DNA from: Bryobacteraceae bacterium
GTDB taxonomy: Bacteria; Acidobacteriota; Terriglobia; Bryobacterales; Bryobacteraceae
Reading direction: 5' to 3'
Length of the DNA stretch: 64,000 nt
Assembly (NCBI GenBank): GCA_035541265.1
Contig: DATKNQ010000141.1
Location: forward strand, 4,179-68,178
Numbering within the stretch: position 1 is the first letter of the stretch; each line of letters begins with the position of its first letter. Below, piece by piece: positions 46,034 to 64,000 of the stretch. Made by a program: the position numbers and the translations under genes. A model generated the notes under the pieces. The model saw only the letters and a list, made by a program, of their open reading frames with translations. It did no database searches and had not been told where the DNA came from.

Positions 46034-46110
46034 TGGCGCGCCCGGAGGGACTCGAACCCCCGGCCTACTGGTTCGAAGCCAGCCGCTCTATCCAACTGAG
46101 CTACGGGCGC
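46034..46110 (-). tRNA. tRNA-Arg (anticodon TCG), CCA encoded
   Basis: Manual cloverleaf: acceptor GCGCCCG/CGGGCGC, D arm GCTC-AGTTGGATA-GAGC, anticodon arm GCTGG-CTTCGAA-CCAGT, T arm GGGGG-TTCGAGT-CCCTC, discriminator G, CCA. 77 nt. Confidence 0.95.
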
Positions 46111-57272: not shown

Positions 57273-58661
57273 CTAGAACACGTTGTAATTAAGCATCACA
57301 TAGGGGTAGGTGTAAGACCGCGCGTGATGCGTGCGCAGCAGGAAGTCACCCGACTGGATGTAGCCGACACCCGCGCCGAGTTCCAGATTCCGATTGAGCC
57401 GGTATGACGCCTGGACGTCAAACTCGTGGCCGATGTGCGTGCCCGACTTGCCCGTCGGATCGCGCGCCACAACCGTGCCGGAGGCGCTGTAGAAAGCATC
57501 GTTGGGGCTGGCCAGCCACCAGTCGTTGTACGCGCCGGCCAGCATCCAATTGCGCCGCAGCGAGATTCGTGCGCCCGTACGGTAAGACTTCAGGTTCTGC
57601 CAGGCGATCTGGTCAGCCAGGCCGTGATGGTCGTGGATATTGGGATAGAGCTGATCGAACGTTCCGTGTACGCCGTCTCTCGGGTTCCTGTCACCCGATG
57701 CGAAATCATATTTCACGAACACGCGCGGCTTGAAGCGGTTCGAGCGAAAGGTGTACCCGGCTATGCCACTCCAGGCCCAAGCCCGAATCTGGTCCGGGCC
57801 GATATCTCCGAATTGGCCTACGGTTTCCAAGTCGTAATCGAATGGGCGCGCCGTACCCGCCCAGCGGACGCCGGTGGTCTTCTCGTCGAGCTTGGCCAGG
57901 TGGCCTTCTTCGGTTTTGATGCCGGGTGTCAGCCGCCAGAGCACATACGGCTCAATGGTCGACGATGGAATCCAGTTCTTCAGCGCGGTGTAGATGCCGT
58001 CGAAGTTGTTTCCCGGCTGGTGGTGGCTGAGCCCGTTATCACCGTTGATGACCGGCGCGGCGGCAAATATGTTCACGCGGACCGAGTTGTGTTTCACAGC
58101 CAGCATGGCGGCGTCGTAGCCGCGCGAAGCGTTGCGCCAGTAGGCGGTGCCCACCAGGCGCATGTGGCCAAATGCCAGATCCTGACGGCCTACCCGCAAG
58201 CTGATGGGACCTTCGTCGAGATCTCCGAAGTCGACATAAGCGCGTCGCAGATCCCAAGTGCTTTGATAAGGCGGCCCCAACACCCCCTTCTTCCAAAACG
58301 CATCGGCATCCTGCAGTTCCACGAATGTTTTCATCCAATGGGTGGGCTTGATCAGCATTCCCAGACGGAACCGCGTCAGCAAGTACGTATCGGAGTTTCC
58401 GGGCTGGAAACCTCCAGCGCTGTAAGACTCCAGGCGGGTGCGATATCCGGCAGTGAAACACACCCAATCGGGTAGTTTCTCGTTCATCTCCGCGATTGGT
58501 GAGAATCGGGCGGCGGGAACATCCTCATCCACCGGCCGGTTGGCGCTGACCCGGCTGCCGCCCGGATTGTCCACGATGCATTGCGCCGCGGCGGGAACGG
58601 CCGCGGCAAGCATCGAGAGGAGCATCGCCCAATGTGAGACCCCTACGAAGCTTCTCGTCAT
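57273..58661 (-). CDS. alginate-export-family outer membrane beta-barrel (AlgE-like porin)
   Basis: ATG at 58661 (ATGA overlap with the tauE-like stop). Signal peptide. GYRTRLESY...YLLTRFRLG...FVELQDA pattern. C-terminal ..MLNYNVF beta-signal. Confidence 0.7.
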   Translation of the reverse strand: MTRSFVGVSHWAMLLSMLAAAVPAAAQCIVDNPGGSRVSANRPVDEDVPAARFSPIAEMNEKLPDWVCFTAGYRTRLESYSAGGFQPGNSDTYLLTRFRLGMLIKPTHWMKTFVELQDADAFWKKGVLGPPYQSTWDLRRAYVDFGDLDEGPISLRVGRQDLAFGHMRLVGTAYWRNASRGYDAAMLAVKHNSVRVNIFAAAPVINGDNGLSHHQPGNNFDGIYTALKNWIPSSTIEPYVLWRLTPGIKTEEGHLAKLDEKTTGVRWAGTARPFDYDLETVGQFGDIGPDQIRAWAWSGIAGYTFRSNRFKPRVFVKYDFASGDRNPRDGVHGTFDQLYPNIHDHHGLADQIAWQNLKSYRTGARISLRRNWMLAGAYNDWWLASPNDAFYSASGTVVARDPTGKSGTHIGHEFDVQASYRLNRNLELGAGVGYIQSGDFLLRTHHARSYTYPYVMLNYNVF

Positions 58662-59479
58662 ATCATCAAGAACCCGATAACGTAAGTGAGGGCCAAGCCT
58701 GTCACCAGAACTCCGAGAACGCCCCGGATCCAGCGCTCGGGCAAGCGCTTCTGAAGCCGTGCGCCCAAATAGCCGCCGGCCAGGCCGCCCACGCCAAACA
58801 GAAGACCCAAGGCCCAATCGGGCCGTACGGCCGTGCTAGCGGCGAGGGCCGTCCGGCTGAACACCTCGAAGGAGGCGACACCCACCGCCGAAGTCGCCCA
58901 TGTGCCAAGCAATGCCGCGCCCGCAATCGCGCGGGCGGGCAGCCGTAAGACCGTCATGGCAAATGGCGCGATCATGGCCCCACCGCCTACTCCGTAAATT
59001 CCGCCAACGATTCCGGCAATCAATGCCGCGGCCATCAGCGGGCGGCGATGGAACGCGGGGACTCCATCGGGATTCGCGGTCGGTGAGGGCGCCGTGTGGA
59101 CCAGGAGGCGAACACCAAGGTAAAGCAGTACACATCCAACGAAGAGTTTTGCGTAGCGTGGGCCGGGCAGGAAGCGAATGCGGATGATGGCTCCCAGGAA
59201 AACGCCGGGCAGAGTTCCGGCCATGACGGCCCACGCCACGTCCCAGGCCATGCGGCGCTCACGAATATACTGCGCAATGGCGCCGGGCGTGGCAACCAGG
59301 TTATAGATCAGATTCGTGGGCGTGACCGCGGGGGTCACGAAACCGAGCACGCTGATCTGAAAGGGCAGGAGCAAAAAGGCCCCTGAGATCCCAGCCGGAG
59401 CTGTCAACAAGGCCACCAGAAACGCGGCGGCCGGCGGGAGCCAGAATGAGCACTCGACCCCCGAAACGGGAAAACGCAT
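58658..59479 (-). CDS. TauE/SafE family sulfite/anion exporter (full length)
   Basis: 273 aa, about 8 TM segments, two internal repeats with GGIYGVGGGAMIAP-type motifs. Confidence 0.85.
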   Translation of the reverse strand: MRFPVSGVECSFWLPPAAAFLVALLTAPAGISGAFLLLPFQISVLGFVTPAVTPTNLIYNLVATPGAIAQYIRERRMAWDVAWAVMAGTLPGVFLGAIIRIRFLPGPRYAKLFVGCVLLYLGVRLLVHTAPSPTANPDGVPAFHRRPLMAAALIAGIVGGIYGVGGGAMIAPFAMTVLRLPARAIAGAALLGTWATSAVGVASFEVFSRTALAASTAVRPDWALGLLFGVGGLAGGYLGARLQKRLPERWIRGVLGVLVTGLALTYVIGFLMI

Positions 59480-59492
59480 GCGGGCCTCGCGC

Positions 59493-59735
59493 TTAAGTGC
59501 GAAAGAACGCGCCGCTAGCCCACATCAACACCACAAGCAGGAAGACGCCGAGCAGGATGCTCCAGAGGACCAACTTCTTCTCGATCGGCAGCAGCGGCTC
59601 GTATGGCATCTTTTGAAGCTCTTCGGCGAGTTTCGGCTGCTCCGCAGCCTTGGGTGGCGCGGCCGGCGCGGTTTGTGGCGCCGGTTTCGGCACATCGGCC
59701 GTGCTCACCCTCTCGGCAACCGGGGTGTGTTTCAT
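59493..59735 (-). CDS. small membrane protein (80 aa, Pro/Ala-rich N-terminus, C-terminal TM)
   Basis: ATG at 59735 preceded by TAAGGA. Lies 11 nt after the upstream stop and 13 nt before the tauE-like start. Confidence 0.5.
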   Translation of the reverse strand: MKHTPVAERVSTADVPKPAPQTAPAAPPKAAEQPKLAEELQKMPYEPLLPIEKKLVLWSILLGVFLLVVLMWASGAFFRT

Positions 59736-59746
59736 ATATGTGATCC

Positions 59747-61177
59747 TTAAGCGACGGGCGGCTGGATACCGTGGAAGAAGATCCAGGAAATAGCCAGGCC
59801 GATCCAGACAATGAAACCGAACAGGCTGAGTACATAAACCAGGGCGAGCTTTCCGATACCTTCCTGCCACAGTCTGCGAAAATCGGAGACCACGCCGATG
59901 GTGAAAAAGGTCATTACGAAGAAGATGCCGCGGAATACGTTGGCTTGCGACATGGCGGCTTTGACCTTGGGAACGAGGTGCGGCATCGACAGACCGATCG
60001 CCGCGATGATGGCGAAGGTCGCCACATAGCCGAGCACGAATTTGGGAAAGCGCTGCCAGATCTCAACGGCTTTCACCTTTTCCCCGCGTTGAGGTTCGAT
60101 CTTGGCGGACCAGATCCAGGCCAGCACGAACGCCCAGATCCCGATGAAGATATCGATGAAGACTTTGACGGTAGTGCTGACGCCCATGATCCATCCGGGC
60201 TTGTAATGAATACCGTAGTCGGCCAGCGCTTTGGCGCGAATCAAGGCATCGGTTACGGCGCCGCTGGTGACCGCCGCGCCATCGGTCTTCACCGCCAGGC
60301 CCATCCAGGCTCCGGCAACCATCGGTTGATGCGAGAGGAAGGTCTGCGCCACAAACGGCAGGAAAAGCAACTCGATCACGGCGAAGATGACGACCAGCGA
60401 GGAGACCATCACGGGAACGACCGGCCGCGCCCGGATCGCCGATCCGGTGGCGATGGCGGCCGACACACCGCAGATCGAGATGCCGGATGCCAGCGGCGCC
60501 GCCCACTCGCGGCTGAACTTGAAGAAGCGGCGCGCGACGTAGTACACCACGGCCCAATAAATCAGGTAAGCCACCACGATCGCGGACAGGCCGCTGAACA
60601 TGATGGAGGTGGCCAGGCCGAGCTGCTCAGCCGCGGTCACGCCGAGGAAACCGCCCAGGATGACGATGGCGGTCTTGATGTATAACTCCGGCCGGATTGC
60701 CTCCTTCATGCGCGCGGCTGCGACAGGCAGAAAGTTGCCCACGAAGAGCCCGGCGATCAAGGCGACGATGTAACCGGCTTCATTGGTCAAGTTGAGCGAC
60801 CAACCGATGTGGAAGGCCGCGCGTTTATCGGGAGTGGCGGCGATGTAGGCCCAACTTCCGATCATCCACGAGAGATAAGCGGCGCAGAAGACCGCGGTGA
60901 AACCTTTTGCGAATCGCCACAGGTCCAGGTGCAGCGTCCTGGCCCCGAGGGTCATGAGCGCCAGGAGAAACACGTAAGTCGCCAGCAGCGACAGTAGCCC
61001 CGGCAGCCCGGCATAGTGCTTCGAGGCAGGCCCCAGCGCTTTCGCGGGGCTGGTCCAGACATTGGTTGAGACAGCCCAACCGAGGGCGTCTAAACCGAAA
61101 AAGCTCGCGAGCGACAACGCGAAGATGAACAAGCCGAGCCAGACGGACAGCCAGTCTTCGTTGAACGCTTTTTTCAC
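59747..61177 (-). CDS. YeiH/UPF0324-family putative sulfate exporter-type transporter
   Basis: 476 aa polytopic protein. SGISICGVSAAIATG motif typical of the family. GTG start overlaps the dsrP-like stop (GTGA). Confidence 0.75.
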   Translation of the reverse strand: MKKAFNEDWLSVWLGLFIFALSLASFFGLDALGWAVSTNVWTSPAKALGPASKHYAGLPGLLSLLATYVFLLALMTLGARTLHLDLWRFAKGFTAVFCAAYLSWMIGSWAYIAATPDKRAAFHIGWSLNLTNEAGYIVALIAGLFVGNFLPVAAARMKEAIRPELYIKTAIVILGGFLGVTAAEQLGLATSIMFSGLSAIVVAYLIYWAVVYYVARRFFKFSREWAAPLASGISICGVSAAIATGSAIRARPVVPVMVSSLVVIFAVIELLFLPFVAQTFLSHQPMVAGAWMGLAVKTDGAAVTSGAVTDALIRAKALADYGIHYKPGWIMGVSTTVKVFIDIFIGIWAFVLAWIWSAKIEPQRGEKVKAVEIWQRFPKFVLGYVATFAIIAAIGLSMPHLVPKVKAAMSQANVFRGIFFVMTFFTIGVVSDFRRLWQEGIGKLALVYVLSLFGFIVWIGLAISWIFFHGIQPPVA

Positions 61178-62373
61178 GTGAGCACTTCAGCTTTCGCGGA
61201 GGGCGTGGGGGAGAAGAGCACGCCCTCCCGGACAGAGAAAGCGATCTTATACAGCACCGTCAGAATCAGCGCGCCCACCGCCCAGATCCCCAGCGTGATG
61301 AGGATCTCCGGCAGGGAGGGCGAATATTCGGTCACCGCGCCAAAGGGCGAGGGGATAAATCCAGCTACGATCAGGCCGATGCCTTTGTCGATCCAGAGCG
61401 ACACGAACACCATACCGCAGGCCGCGGCGAGCAGCGTATCGTGATGGCGGTATCGCGGCACCAGCAGCAGGACGAGAGAGACGGCGGCCAGAAGCATCGA
61501 AACCCACATCCAGGGCGCAAGGCGCGCGTGCCCGCCCAAGCCCGCGAACATGTAGCGCAGCGATTCGGTGTGCTCGGGGATGTGGCTGTAGAACGCGGTG
61601 AAGAATTCCATCAGCACGAAGAACACGCTGATCACCATGGCGTAGGTCACGATCGTGGCCAGCTTCTGAATCGGTTCCCGCGGGCTCGGCAAATGGTTCA
61701 CCTTGGCGATGATCATCGCCAGCAGGATCAGCAAGGCGGGGCCGGAGGCAAACGCGGAGGCCAGAAAGCGCGGCGCCAGGATGGCGGTGAGCCACAGGCT
61801 CCTGCCGGGGAGACCGTTATAAAGGAACGCCGTAACGGTATGGATGCTGACGGCCCAGGGTACGGATAAGAAGATGACGGCTGTGATCCAGACCGGCGGC
61901 GCCACACTCTCGCGTTCGGCGCGCAGAGTGGTGAACGCGATCACCGCATTCAACACCAGATAGCCTGCCAGAGAGATCATATCCCAGAACATGAGGGAGT
62001 GGGGCGTGGGATAAAGCAGCACATTGAATACACGCGTGGGCTGGCCCATGTCGACAAAGATGAAGAGCATGCACATGGTCACGGCCGCAATGGCCAGAAA
62101 TTCGCCCAGGATGGTGAGGCGGGCGAAGGCCTTCACGTGGTGTATGTAGTAGGGCAGCACGACCATGACGGCGGACGCCGCTACGCCCACCAGAAACGTG
62201 AACTGGGCGATGTACAGGCCCCAGGTGACGTCGCGGCTGAGGCCGGTGATTCCGAGGCCGTAGTCCAATTGGCGCCGGTAGGCCAGAAGACCGGCAAGCA
62301 TCACCGCGAACAGGCAGGCGAGCCATATCCAGTACCTGCGGCTGCCGGTGAGCGCCTTTTCAAACATCAGCAT
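61174..62373 (-). CDS. dsrP: NrfD/PsrC-family integral membrane quinone-interacting subunit, DsrP-like
   Basis: 399 aa, about 10 TM segments, NrfD-like N-terminus (DVTWGLYIAQFTFLVG). Position after the dsrO-like gene. Confidence 0.8.
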   Translation of the reverse strand: MLMFEKALTGSRRYWIWLACLFAVMLAGLLAYRRQLDYGLGITGLSRDVTWGLYIAQFTFLVGVAASAVMVVLPYYIHHVKAFARLTILGEFLAIAAVTMCMLFIFVDMGQPTRVFNVLLYPTPHSLMFWDMISLAGYLVLNAVIAFTTLRAERESVAPPVWITAVIFLSVPWAVSIHTVTAFLYNGLPGRSLWLTAILAPRFLASAFASGPALLILLAMIIAKVNHLPSPREPIQKLATIVTYAMVISVFFVLMEFFTAFYSHIPEHTESLRYMFAGLGGHARLAPWMWVSMLLAAVSLVLLLVPRYRHHDTLLAAACGMVFVSLWIDKGIGLIVAGFIPSPFGAVTEYSPSLPEILITLGIWAVGALILTVLYKIAFSVREGVLFSPTPSAKAEVLT

Positions 62374-62382
62374 GGCGGAACC

Positions 62383-63105
62383 TCATACGATGTAGAACAC
62401 CTGGGGCTGGGTACCTAGTTCGGGCTTCCGCCGCATATGCCGGCGGGAGGCCAGCAGTTGGCGGATCTCCGAATGCGGGTCGGCCAGGTTGCCGAATACC
62501 AGCGCCTTCTCGGGACACACCGCGACGCAAGCTGGCGGCTGTCCAACGGCCAGCCGCTCGGAACAGAAATTGCATTTTTCTACCACGCCCTTGGTACGCG
62601 TCGGAAAATCCGGGTTGGGCTGGTGAATGTACGCGCGCGGGTCCTGCCAGTTGAAGCTGCGCGAACCGTAAGGGCAAGCGGCCATGCAATAGCGGCAGCC
62701 GATGCAGCGGTGATAATCCATTTCCACAATGCCGTCGTCACGCTTGAAAGTAGCCTGCGTGGGACAGACGCGCACACAGGGCGGATCGTCGCAGTGATTG
62801 CAGAGCACCATCACGGGCGCCGCGCGCAGCGGCGAATAGTCGTCGACCTGGTTCAGGAAGGCGCGGTCGAACGGCTCTTTCCAGATCCATTTGACGGTGT
62901 GCCGCGGATCCGGCAATTGCGGCACATTGTGCGCGTGATTGCACGCCTCGATGCACTTGGTGCAGTCCGGCTGCTTCAGACATTTGGCGGTATCGATGGC
63001 CATGCCCCAACGCGTGCGGCCGGCCGCGGCGGCCAATTTCCGGAACGTCAGCCCGACGCACCCGAGCCCGCTCAGCCGCAGGAAGTCCTTACGTGAGATC
63101 TTCAT
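62383..63105 (-). CDS. dsrO: periplasmic 4x[4Fe-4S] ferredoxin-like subunit with Tat-type signal, DsrO-like
   Basis: ATG at 63105 with a GAGGAG RBS. SRKDFLRLSG signal. Cluster motifs CNHCDDPPCVRVCP, CIGCRYCMAACP, CNFC...CVAVCP. Confidence 0.85.
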   Translation of the reverse strand: MKISRKDFLRLSGLGCVGLTFRKLAAAAGRTRWGMAIDTAKCLKQPDCTKCIEACNHAHNVPQLPDPRHTVKWIWKEPFDRAFLNQVDDYSPLRAAPVMVLCNHCDDPPCVRVCPTQATFKRDDGIVEMDYHRCIGCRYCMAACPYGSRSFNWQDPRAYIHQPNPDFPTRTKGVVEKCNFCSERLAVGQPPACVAVCPEKALVFGNLADPHSEIRQLLASRRHMRRKPELGTQPQVFYIV

Positions 63106-63497
63106 CTGGCGCTCCTCAACACGGGCTTGACATCGAGGTGGCAATTCCAACAGGGCAGCGAGACGGCCGTGTAATTGTGGCAGCGGTCGCAGAATTCGGC
63201 CTTGGAGCCGTGGCACTGGAGGCAGGTCTTGGTCAGGCTCATGTTGTAATGCCTTCCGTCGAAGGTGGTGTAGTCCCGCCCGCTCTGCCGCACCACGTCG
63301 GCCCGCCAATCGAACAAAAGATCCATATGCGAGGTCCGCATGTAAGCCAGCGGCGCGACGCATTGCTTCTCGTGCGCGGGCAGCACCGGCGCGGGGCCTT
63401 TGGTGGTGACGTGCGCCGCGAGATTGTGCCAGATGGGCAGCGTCAGGAATCCGGCGAACAGCAGCAGCCCGCAGTAGATCACAGGCCGGTCACGCAT
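63102..63497 (-). CDS. dsrJ: membrane-anchored trihaem cytochrome c, DsrJ-like
   Basis: ATG at 63497 with an AGGAGGTG RBS. N-terminal anchor. Three CxxCH motifs (CLQCH, CDRCH, CWNCH) plus an extra conserved-position Cys (KQCVAP). 131 aa. Confidence 0.75.
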   Translation of the reverse strand: MRDRPVIYCGLLLFAGFLTLPIWHNLAAHVTTKGPAPVLPAHEKQCVAPLAYMRTSHMDLLFDWRADVVRQSGRDYTTFDGRHYNMSLTKTCLQCHGSKAEFCDRCHNYTAVSLPCWNCHLDVKPVLRSAR

Positions 63498-64000
63498 GGG
63501 CCACCTCCTGTTCCGTGGCTGCGGCCAGCGGCTCGCCGCGCAGATCGGTGGTGCGCTGCTTCTCGCCGCGCAGGATGAGCGCATTGCCGACCAGTTCGTG
63601 AATGCCGGCCACCTCCACCCCCGGAACCCAGTATTCGAGCAGCGGCGGCAAGGTGGCCTTGTCGATGGCGCAAATGCAGGTCAGCAGATTCACGCCGTAC
63701 TTGTCGTGCACATAGCGCACCGCATTGGCGCGCGGAAGACCGCCGCGCATGCGCATCTCGAAGTTTTCGTCGGTACCTAATCCTGAGCCGGAGCCGCAAC
63801 AGAAGGTCTGTTCGCGGATGGTATTCTCGGGCATTTCGTGGAACTGCCGGACCACGTTGCGCAGGATGTAACGCGGCTCTTCGATCAGCCCCATGGCGCG
63901 CGCCGGATTGCAGGAATCGTGGAACGTCACATTCCACCGGTCGTTGCGCGAGGGATCCAGGCGCAGCTTGCCCTCGTGGATCAGGTCGGCGGTGAACTCG
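63490..64000 (-). CDS. dsrK: HdrD/DsrK-like CCG-domain iron-sulfur protein, C-terminal part (gene runs off the window end)
   Basis: The frame is open to the window edge. VTFHDSCN...FCCGSGSG CCG-domain motifs. Followed by J-O-P in the dsrMKJOP order. Confidence 0.8.
   Translation of the reverse strand, partial: EFTADLIHEGKLRLDPSRNDRWNVTFHDSCNPARAMGLIEEPRYILRNVVRQFHEMPENTIREQTFCCGSGSGLGTDENFEMRMRGGLPRANAVRYVHDKYGVNLLTCICAIDKATLPPLLEYWVPGVEVAGIHELVGNALILRGEKQRTTDLRGEPLAAATEQEVAHA

Follow-up and report, generated by a model that had tools for sequence, protein, structure and literature searches.

A modular tail of predicted transporter genes behind dsrKJOP in a Bryobacteraceae bacterium and related Acidobacteriota

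The dsrKJOP array and its transporter genes

We analyzed eight minus-strand genes at positions 57273–64000 of a 64,000-nucleotide stretch of DNA (hereafter, the window) from a Bryobacteraceae bacterium of the phylum Acidobacteriota. The array runs from four genes of the Dsr redox machinery (dsrK, dsrJ, dsrO, and dsrP) into a tail that encodes a predicted secondary transporter (here called Y), a single-helix microprotein (s), a TauE/SafE-type permease (TauE), and an outer-membrane β-barrel (Table 1). A preliminary description, made from the letters of the window alone, had reported these genes as chained, with gaps of at most 13 nt and four start/stop overlaps; all open reading frames (ORFs) were present as stated, and the junctions matched exactly. 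Among the dsr genes, dsrK and dsrJ overlap by 8 nt, dsrJ and dsrO share an ATGA overlap, and dsrO and dsrP are 9 nt apart. The chain continues into the tail with a GTGA overlap between dsrP and Y, gaps of 11 nt (Y to s) and 13 nt (s to TauE), and a further ATGA overlap between TauE and the barrel gene. Terminator-like hairpins were not above the shuffled expectation (7 versus 6.1 expected) and none was located at a gene junction; the promoter scan likewise gave no signal above the shuffled expectation. On the 3′ side of the barrel gene, a 259-bp gap is followed by genes for a tetratricopeptide-repeat protein, a xylose-isomerase-like TIM barrel, ThuA, and a Gfo/Idh/MocA oxidoreductase. This gap and the non-sulfur genes past it indicate that the operon-like unit ends at position 57273.

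Table 1. Genes of the array, in order of transcription, with window coordinates
Gene	Product	Positions	Strand	Basis
dsrK, 3′ part	last 169 aa of the protein; gene incomplete, reading frame open at the window end	63490–63999	minus	NCBIfam and CCG domain
dsrJ	131 aa, membrane-anchored trihaem cytochrome c	63102–63497	minus	NCBIfam and three CXXCH motifs
dsrO	240 aa, periplasmic Fe-S protein with Tat-like signal	62383–63105	minus	NCBIfam and Pfam Fer4_11
dsrP	399 aa, NrfD-type membrane subunit	61174–62373	minus	NCBIfam and Pfam NrfD
Y	476 aa, predicted secondary transporter, divergent PF03601 (YeiH/PSE family)	59747–61177	minus	Pfam
s	80 aa, single-helix microprotein, probable accessory subunit of Y	59493–59735	minus	no Pfam or NCBIfam family
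TauE	273 aa, predicted TauE/SafE (TSUP-family) permease	58658–59479	minus	PF01925
barrel	462 aa, predicted Alginate_exp outer-membrane β-barrel with signal peptide; last gene	57273–58661	minus	PF13372

The identity of the redox genes was assessed with profile hidden Markov models (HMMs). DsrJ (NF038038, 142.7 bits, cut-off 100), DsrO (NF045797, 297.4 bits, cut-off 200), and DsrP (NF045798, 464.6 bits, cut-off 350) all scored above the cut-offs of their NCBIfam equivalog models. Besides its three heme-binding motifs, DsrJ has a hydrophobic N-terminal anchor, and DsrO begins with MKISRKDFLRLSG, which resembles a twin-arginine translocation (Tat) signal with RK replacing RR. The DsrK fragment, which contains a CCG domain, matched NF045796 best (222 bits on model positions 304–449, the last third) and was 90.6% identical to the full-length DsrK of a relative (L003) that itself reached 728 bits (cut-off 400). 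An Hmc, Tmc, Qrc, or Hme identity for K, O, and P was rejected because the Dsr models outscored these alternatives by large margins: HmcF and TmcB reached 53 and 45 bits on the DsrK fragment, QrcC came second on DsrO at 148 bits, and QrcD reached merely 67 bits on DsrP. Judged by these profile scores, K-J-O-P are true dsrKJOP genes, as had been proposed, and not Hmc/Tmc/Qrc paralogs.

The preliminary description had also guessed that dsrM, and possibly dsrAB and dsrC, lie past the window edge, and this was borne out in relatives with the same array. In the closest long relative (L003/L164; Y 86% and DsrK 91% identical to the window), the gene order is dsrA-dsrB-x143-dsrL-dsrC-dsrT-dsrM-K-J-O-P-Y-s-TauE-barrel, followed by a divergent two-component system, and the L003 proteins scored 489 bits (DsrM), 123 bits (DsrC), 519 bits (DsrB), and 434 bits (DsrA) on their models. 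All 34 species-representative genomes with J-O-P-Y have dsrM and dsrK upstream; dsrC, dsrL, dsrB, and dsrA are also found there wherever the sequence (10 kb) reaches far enough. The x143 gene (L003:2029–2460), equivalent to gene 1362 of the metagenome-assembled genome (MAG) CO124, encodes a conserved 143-aa product without a family and lies between dsrB and dsrL in most operons. Its anoxic induction in CO124 was as strong as that of dsrAB, at 10–18 reads per kilobase per million (RPKM) (PMC10564751).

Recurrence of the linkage behind dsrP

To survey the linkage, 503 relatives of Y were collected with one genome per species and the best 80 were examined, while a DsrP-based scan of metagenomes supplied the reverse conditional, namely what follows dsrP. 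Among the best 80 Y relatives, dsrJ-O-P directly preceded Y in 33 of the 69 loci with enough upstream sequence. Of the 31 loci in which the distance from dsrP to Y could be measured, 26 had a spacing of −7 to +61 nt; start/stop overlaps were seen in eight. In the reverse direction, Y followed dsrP in 22 of 25 relatives with a DsrP identity of at least 66% and enough 3′ sequence, versus 3 of 27 more distant DsrP relatives. One metagenome contig (L083) was 97–100% identical to the window across dsrP-Y-s-TauE-barrel. The preliminary description had made its case for the linkage depend on recurrence in related genomes, and recurrence was found in dozens of loci; an arrangement repeated in so many genomes rules out chance. 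The linkage is real and conserved, yet specific to the terrestrial acidobacterial dsr clade.

The same genes also occur away from dsr. A Y-s-TauE-barrel cassette without nearby dsr genes was found on a 3.16-Mb acidobacterial contig (L002:10001–13838, = L012), adjacent to a CheR fragment and to a divergent gene for a 2,078-aa PAS sensor kinase, which is accompanied by the gene for its response regulator. The cassette is thus a module that can be separated from dsr, its four genes traveling together. In a neighbor-joining tree of Y, dsr-linked copies were present in both major acidobacterial clades with unlinked copies interspersed, and copies from other phyla were nested and unlinked. Clustering of the flanking ORFs revealed no conserved non-dsr neighbors of Y-s beyond lineage-specific synteny and some kinase/regulator pairs. 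A rearranged locus (L049:6548–11434) carries a dsrM2-like gene (38.6 bits), a dsrK2-like gene (317 bits, under the DsrK cut-off), a 76-aa dsrL remnant, an intact dsrC, and then Y, and has the appearance of a dsr cluster in which Y was retained through decay or recombination. Separately, a gene for a weakly scoring Rrf2-family (CymR/IscR-like) regulator adjoins Y in four loci without dsr (L048:9204–9788, and cluster c5 in L032, L033, and L050). Although its score is below the family cut-off, this neighbor hints at sulfur- or Fe-S-responsive control of stand-alone Y.

A conserved Y-s core with exchangeable additions

The label YeiH/UPF0324, given to Y in the preliminary description, stands at the level of the Pfam domain and fails at the level of orthology. 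Y matched PF03601 at 75.4 bits (cut-off 24.5) but TIGR00698 at 16.3 bits (cut-off 232.6), and it is 22% identical to Escherichia coli YeiH over 143 aa, with about 135 extra N-terminal residues. It does carry the GxSICGxxAxxAT signature shared with the YeiH/PSE family. By these sequence comparisons, Y is a member of a divergent PF03601 subfamily and not a YeiH ortholog. Its identity of 67–86% across phyla suggests horizontal transfer. When Y, TauE, and the barrel were compared by sequence with solved structures, there was no match at E ≤ 1. The AlphaFold model of Y had a mean predicted local distance difference test (pLDDT) score of 69.8 and a predicted template modeling (pTM) score of 0.74, and its best weak Foldseek matches were the Na+/H+ antiporters NHA2 and NhaP, and CitS (TM scores 0.2–0.39, non-significant). 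Such matches would fit the elevator-type, ion-coupled fold that has been suggested for YeiH, although they prove nothing.

Directly 3′ of Y, the microprotein gene s was detected in 60 of 79 loci in six or more phyla (e.g., L065:11503–11586, L075:6372–6524). Its hosts include Acidobacteriota, Zixibacteria, Nitrospirae, Verrucomicrobia, Desulfomonilaceae and other Deltaproteobacteria, and Planctomycetota. The conserved core, PKLAEELxKMxYEPLLPxEKKL followed by one hydrophobic transmembrane helix, belongs to proteins with a median length of 50–56 aa; the longer form in the window has a non-conserved Pro-rich N-terminal extension in common with L003. No Pfam or NCBIfam model matched s, which may be an unrecognized accessory subunit of this PF03601 subfamily. 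Y and s form the conserved core of the tail.

Other parts of the tail vary. The window TauE matched PF01925 at 125.9 bits over profile positions 3–235 of 237, so that the full-length TauE/SafE protein of the preliminary description was confirmed. Among the 80 loci, TauE followed Y-s in 14 and the barrel gene was present in five, both confined to Bryobacterales-type loci; TauE stood directly after dsrP in L092 and L105. Relatives add a Cys-rich 174-aa ORF without a family (u174), a second PF01925 protein (TauE2, 166 bits), and a DUF1634 protein, as in L006:12481–14235 and also in L010, L009, L092, L098, and L168; none of these three had a match anywhere in the 64-kb window. The arrangements with Y-s comprise dsrP-Y-s-TauE-u174-TauE2-DUF1634 (the peatland MAG SbA3 and L006, among others), dsrP-Y-s-barrel-u174 with or without TauE2-DUF1634, dsrP-Y-s-TauE-barrel with or without u174, and dsrP-Y-s-u174. 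Those lacking Y comprise dsrP-TauE-u174-TauE2-DUF1634 and, intact in L168, dsrP-barrel-u174-TauE2-DUF1634. In L092, L093, and L168, TauE or the barrel gene stands directly behind dsrP without Y. That different permeases and the barrel each take the place directly behind dsrP speaks in favor of a functional link rather than a frozen accident. The hard-wired tail of the preliminary description thus holds for Y and s, which are widely kept after dsrP; TauE and the barrel are additions that are confined to particular clades and can be exchanged, and the cassette also exists without dsr.

The outer-membrane barrel and its gene contexts

The last gene had been described as an alginate-export-family β-barrel, in agreement with a nearly full-length PF13372 match (255.9 bits, profile positions 2–387 of 395). 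Orthologs occur in the dsr tails of L003/L164, L009, L011, L025, L084, and L168. Seven contexts of barrel orthologs were sampled: two were dsr tails (L164, L168), one was near sat (L165), one was a cysDN operon (L167), and three were unrelated. Since no alginate genes (alg8, alg44, algK, or algX) were found near the window barrel or in any sampled context, a role in alginate export was rejected.

In the cysDN case (L167:4572–9383), the order is TauE-cysD-cysN-(150 aa)-barrel, with a barrel 60.5% identical over 451 aa to that of the window. Frameshifts interrupt both cysD and cysN and probably stem from errors in long-read assembly; the operon resembles a unit for the uptake and activation of sulfate in assimilation. 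Because transport in a cysDN operon is sensible only inward, the barrel subfamily is best read as a putative outer-membrane pore for sulfur oxyanions. In L165 (8001–15487), a barrel ortholog with 67% identity lies about 3 kb from a group of genes comprising opposite-strand sat (471 bits), an amidase gene similar to cobB/dsrN (404 bits), a uroporphyrinogen-III methyltransferase gene (siroheme), and an 84-aa ORF that may be dsrD. Fragments of an IS91-type transposase and an integrase lie immediately upstream of this barrel gene.

Co-induction with dsr in a close relative

Metatranscriptomic expression data for a close relative were available from Supplementary Data 2 of Dyksma & Pester 2023 (PMC10564751), in which gene 1353 of MAG CO124 is listed as a 1,428-bp hypothetical gene beside dsrP on NODE_20. 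By gene size, contig, and position, this gene is the Y ortholog of L007. It had an RPKM of 0 in the four oxic samples and of 4.0, 3.2, 3.2, and 6.5 under anoxic conditions (log2 fold change −7.07, adjusted P = 1.8e-9), in parallel with dsrMKJOP (2–7 RPKM), dsrAB, dsrC, qmo, and apr (PMC10564751). The authors concluded that CO124 is a sulfate reducer and stated that every acidobacterial DsrAB known so far belongs to the reductive type and is accompanied by DsrD and DsrL type 2 (PMC10564751). The word SulP was matched in that paper only within its references.

The acidobacterial MAGs studied lack Sox, Sqr, Fcc, Soe, and DsrEFH. In peat, sulfate concentrations are low micromolar, and several acidobacterial MAGs carry the sulfite-reducing part of the pathway alone. 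The SbA7 MAG has a full sulfate-reduction pathway without a recognized sulfate transporter.

Proposed transport route and competing explanations

The region is probably the 3′ half of the canonical acidobacterial operon dsrAB-hyp-dsrL-dsrC-dsrT-dsrMKJOP, whose transcript continues into a modular tail that would transport a small sulfur oxyanion. DsrAB and DsrC act in the cytoplasm, DsrMKJOP links DsrC to the quinone pool, and the tail would connect this cytoplasmic chemistry to the cell exterior. The cargo would most likely be sulfite and/or sulfate (or thiosulfate); by analogy, the genetics of the YeiH family, the thiosulfate induction of one of its members, and the family membership of TauE support a sulfur oxyanion. 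Y would be a secondary transporter working with its microprotein of about 50 aa, TauE would provide a second inner-membrane pathway, and the barrel would be a passive, probably anion-selective pore in the outer membrane.

As to direction, we tentatively favor uptake of the electron acceptor under reductive operation, at slightly less than an even chance. The grounds are the reductive physiology, the cysDN-linked barrel ortholog, the barrel near sat/dsrN, and the micromolar sulfate of peat; moreover, MAGs with dsr only, which reduce sulfite, need an importer. Specific outer-membrane pores generally serve scarce substrates, which we also take as favoring uptake. In its complete form, this proposal describes a dedicated, envelope-spanning uptake route for sulfite/sulfate, built from a PF03601-like transporter with an obligatory microprotein, a TSUP permease, and an Alginate_exp pore. 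We regard this complete form as a possibility somewhat less likely than inward transport as such. The barrel would then be a sulfur-oxyanion channel shared by dissimilatory and assimilatory pathways in Acidobacteriota, and the Y-s pair, as part of it, is also distributed over Nitrospirota, Zixibacteria, Desulfomonilaceae, Planctomycetota, and Verrucomicrobiota.

Several observations weigh against this proposal. The roles of the Y, TauE, and barrel subfamilies are predicted ones, and dsrM, dsrC, and dsrAB are placed in this genome on the strength of its relatives. Transfer of function from YeiH to Y is weak because of the 22% identity and the TIGR00698 failure, and a Foldseek search of the Y model against the PDB returned nothing at E ≤ 0.001. 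Wherever PF03601 and TauE proteins have been studied genetically, the results indicate efflux or detoxification rather than uptake. The TauE of the L167 cysDN operon belongs to a different subfamily (24–27% identity), and the inward argument is therefore not extended to the window TauE; an outer-membrane pore is passive and does not by itself imply a direction. The CO124 expression evidence covers Y alone among the tail genes. Finally, Y-s is found in many genomes without a dsr neighbor and in heterogeneous contexts.

The genetic data on efflux lead to a different explanation, in which the tail is a safety valve that exports cytoplasmic sulfite, derived from AprBA or organosulfonates, whenever DsrAB/DsrC lag behind, and so protects the cell in reductive operation or at oxic/anoxic switches. 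Loss of YeiH-family proteins renders Salmonella (yeiH) and Bordetella (bp2808, BP2808) mutants sulfite-sensitive, which is genetic evidence, although from distant family members. TauE is the name-giving family of sulfite/sulfoacetate exporters, and both YeiH and TauE of Hyphomicrobium denitrificans have been proposed as sulfite exporters. Co-induction with dsr is equally compatible with this explanation and does not separate uptake from efflux, because the enteric sulfite sensor YeiE activates both the sulfite reductase genes and yeiH. Yet up to three inner-membrane systems and a dedicated outer-membrane pore would be heavy equipment for a valve, exporting a respiratory substrate would be wasteful at micromolar sulfate, an ortholog of the barrel sits in an assimilatory sulfate operon, and Y is very distant from the characterized YeiH proteins. 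We rank the safety valve second and consider it rather unlikely. Export has also been suggested for the opposite metabolism: the preliminary description named the transporters exporters, which in reverse-Dsr sulfur oxidation would carry the sulfite/sulfate formed across the envelope. The presence of DsrL in relatives' operons, the exporter family names, and the 526-fold induction of yeiH by thiosulfate in the sulfur oxidizer H. denitrificans are in its favor, and possible reverse operation has been discussed (Hausmann 2018; PMC6018796). It is nevertheless the weakest reading of these genes and an improbable one, given the reductive-type DsrAB with DsrD and DsrL type 2, the lack of Sox, Sqr, Fcc, Soe, and DsrEFH in the studied MAGs, the cysDN-linked barrel, the 22% identity of Y to YeiH, and the CO124 operon, which including Y is on under anoxic sulfate reduction alone and off under oxygen.

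Two further explanations dispense with sulfur transport. The Y-s(-TauE-barrel) genes could be an autonomous mobile transport cassette for another substrate that landed behind dsrP once and was then inherited. The dsr-free cassette of L002/L012, the heterogeneous neighbors of Y-s outside Acidobacteriota, the horizontal transfer suggested by Y identities across phyla, and the clade-specific linkage (3 of 27 among distant dsrP relatives) would all fit. A single landing is, however, difficult to reconcile with independent arrangements in which TauE, the barrel, TauE2, or Y is directly behind dsrP, with translational overlaps and strict co-regulation with dsr, with Y adjoining dsrC and dsrM2K2 in the rearranged L049, and with barrel genes tied to sat/dsrN and cysDN elsewhere; we judge it quite improbable. 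Alternatively, Y-s could be an ion-translocating accessory of DsrMKJOP, that is, a Na+/H+-antiporter-like subunit that adds energy coupling rather than transporting a solute. The GTGA coupling to dsrP and the nature of the best structural matches (NHA2, NhaP) speak for such a subunit, but those matches are non-significant, Y-s is often encoded alone and far from dsr, and Y is missing from some dsr operons within the same clade (L092, L093, L101, L168), which makes it very improbable.

Wider gene content of the window

Positions 1–57013 of the window encode functions of a heterotroph, including an acetyl-xylan-esterase-like protein, a GH127 arabinofuranosidase, Gfo/Idh/MocA oxidoreductases, and ThuA, as well as a major facilitator superfamily transporter, a tricorn-type protease, a β-lactamase-fold protein, and a tRNA-Arg(TCG) at 46034–46110. 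No sulfur-metabolism gene was detected among the ten largest ORFs scanned in this part. This content fits the polysaccharide-degrading lifestyle reported for dsr-bearing Acidobacteriota.

Relation to known systems

The preliminary description held the linkage to be undescribed, which applies to its interpretation and not to the neighborhood itself. Hausmann 2018 had drawn "syntenic genes 1–4 of unknown function" at acidobacterial dsr clusters in their Fig. 2 (PMC6018796), and Dyksma & Pester 2023 listed the Y ortholog as a co-induced "conserved hypothetical" in Supplementary Data 2 (PMC10564751); neither study interpreted these genes. In our literature search, no paper was found in which DsrMKJOP of these organisms is tied to PF03601 or TauE transporters or to a channel of the outer membrane. 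The dsr part was already known; what is new is the Y-s two-component pair with its spread over phyla, the mosaic transporter tail, and the sulfur-linked barrel subfamily. The finding is not surprising in principle, and it yields concrete transport candidates. Comparative genomics of transporters in sulfate reducers has yielded candidate systems, none of them confirmed, and in some reducers TSUP proteins are the sole candidates (PMC5840216).

A tail that is chained to dsrMKJOP, co-induced, and reshuffled yet kept over dozens of species offers testable candidates for both membranes, and a conserved transporter-microprotein pair is now defined across several anaerobic phyla. The labels "sulfate exporter," "sulfite exporter," and "alginate export" may mislead here. 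If the uptake proposal is true, the tail would contain the sulfite/sulfate importer that Dsr-based respiration has so far been missing, together with an outer-membrane channel for sulfate/sulfite that would be the first of its kind. Peatlands, in which sulfur cycling at low sulfate suppresses methanogenesis, harbor dsr-bearing Acidobacteriota in abundance.

The nearest known systems are the dsr clusters of peatland Acidobacteriota (Ca. Sulfopaludibacter/Sulfotelmatobacter MAGs SbA1-7, and CO124), which share the order dsrAB-hyp-dsrL-dsrC-dsrT-dsrMKJOP followed by the 1,428-bp hypothetical gene Y. SbA3 (L010) and CO124 (L007) are among the relatives with a Y identity of 83–86%. The tails differ in that the window ends in Y-s-TauE-barrel, whereas SbA3 and L006 continue as Y-s-TauE-u174-TauE2-DUF1634; the CO124 contig stops after u174, and the barrel was seen in none of SbA3, L006, and CO124.

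With the YeiH/PSE family (Transporter Classification (TC) 2.A.98; Salmonella YeiH, Bordetella BP2808, H. denitrificans Hden_0834, Paracoccus SuyZ), Y shares the Pfam domain, the signature, and a link to sulfite biology. It differs in being always paired with a microprotein and in being part of a respiratory operon instead of neighboring a sulfite sensor of the LysR type. By description, Y-s resembles the pair in Desulfovibrio vulgaris Hildenborough DVU0542-0545, where the PSE transporter DVU0543 is accompanied by the 133-aa single-transmembrane protein DVU0544, although these genes, unlike the window Y-s, are not beside dsr. Control of that cluster lies with a histidine kinase and with DVU0539, a response regulator that activates the promoter of DVU0542. 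Disruption of the D. vulgaris PSE transporter and the adjacent small transmembrane protein gave a fitness gain under molybdate as its sole phenotype; this is as expected of an oxyanion importer, and by analogy Y-s may be likened to one. In the Nitrospirae loci L065 (6414–9732) and L074, a sensor kinase and a response regulator precede Y-s, and in L066 the pair is further upstream of Y. Pfam assigns a kinase with a Tll0287-like periplasmic domain and a sigma-54-dependent regulator to L065, with L074 and L066 grouped by sequence similarity alone. This arrangement resembles the molybdate-responsive DVU0539-0545 cluster.

The window TauE shares full-length PF01925 with the TSUP family (TC 2.A.102), which includes TauE/SafE and Corynebacterium glutamicum CysZ. 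The family holds proposed sulfite/sulfoacetate exporters as well as the sulfate importer CysZ, encoded in a cys operon of C. glutamicum (PMC5840216). The window protein represents an uncharacterized subfamily and is translationally coupled to an outer-membrane barrel. That barrel, in turn, shares the family PF13372 and a signal peptide with the alginate secretion barrel AlgE, but it has no sequence match to the AlgE structure at E ≤ 1, and its partners are small-anion permeases and sulfur genes. From unrelated protein families, and without an outer-membrane component, NarK in narK-narGHJI and the formate-nitrite transporter (FNT) family hydrosulfide channel beside asrABC provide precedents for reductase operons that encode their own anion channel or antiporter.

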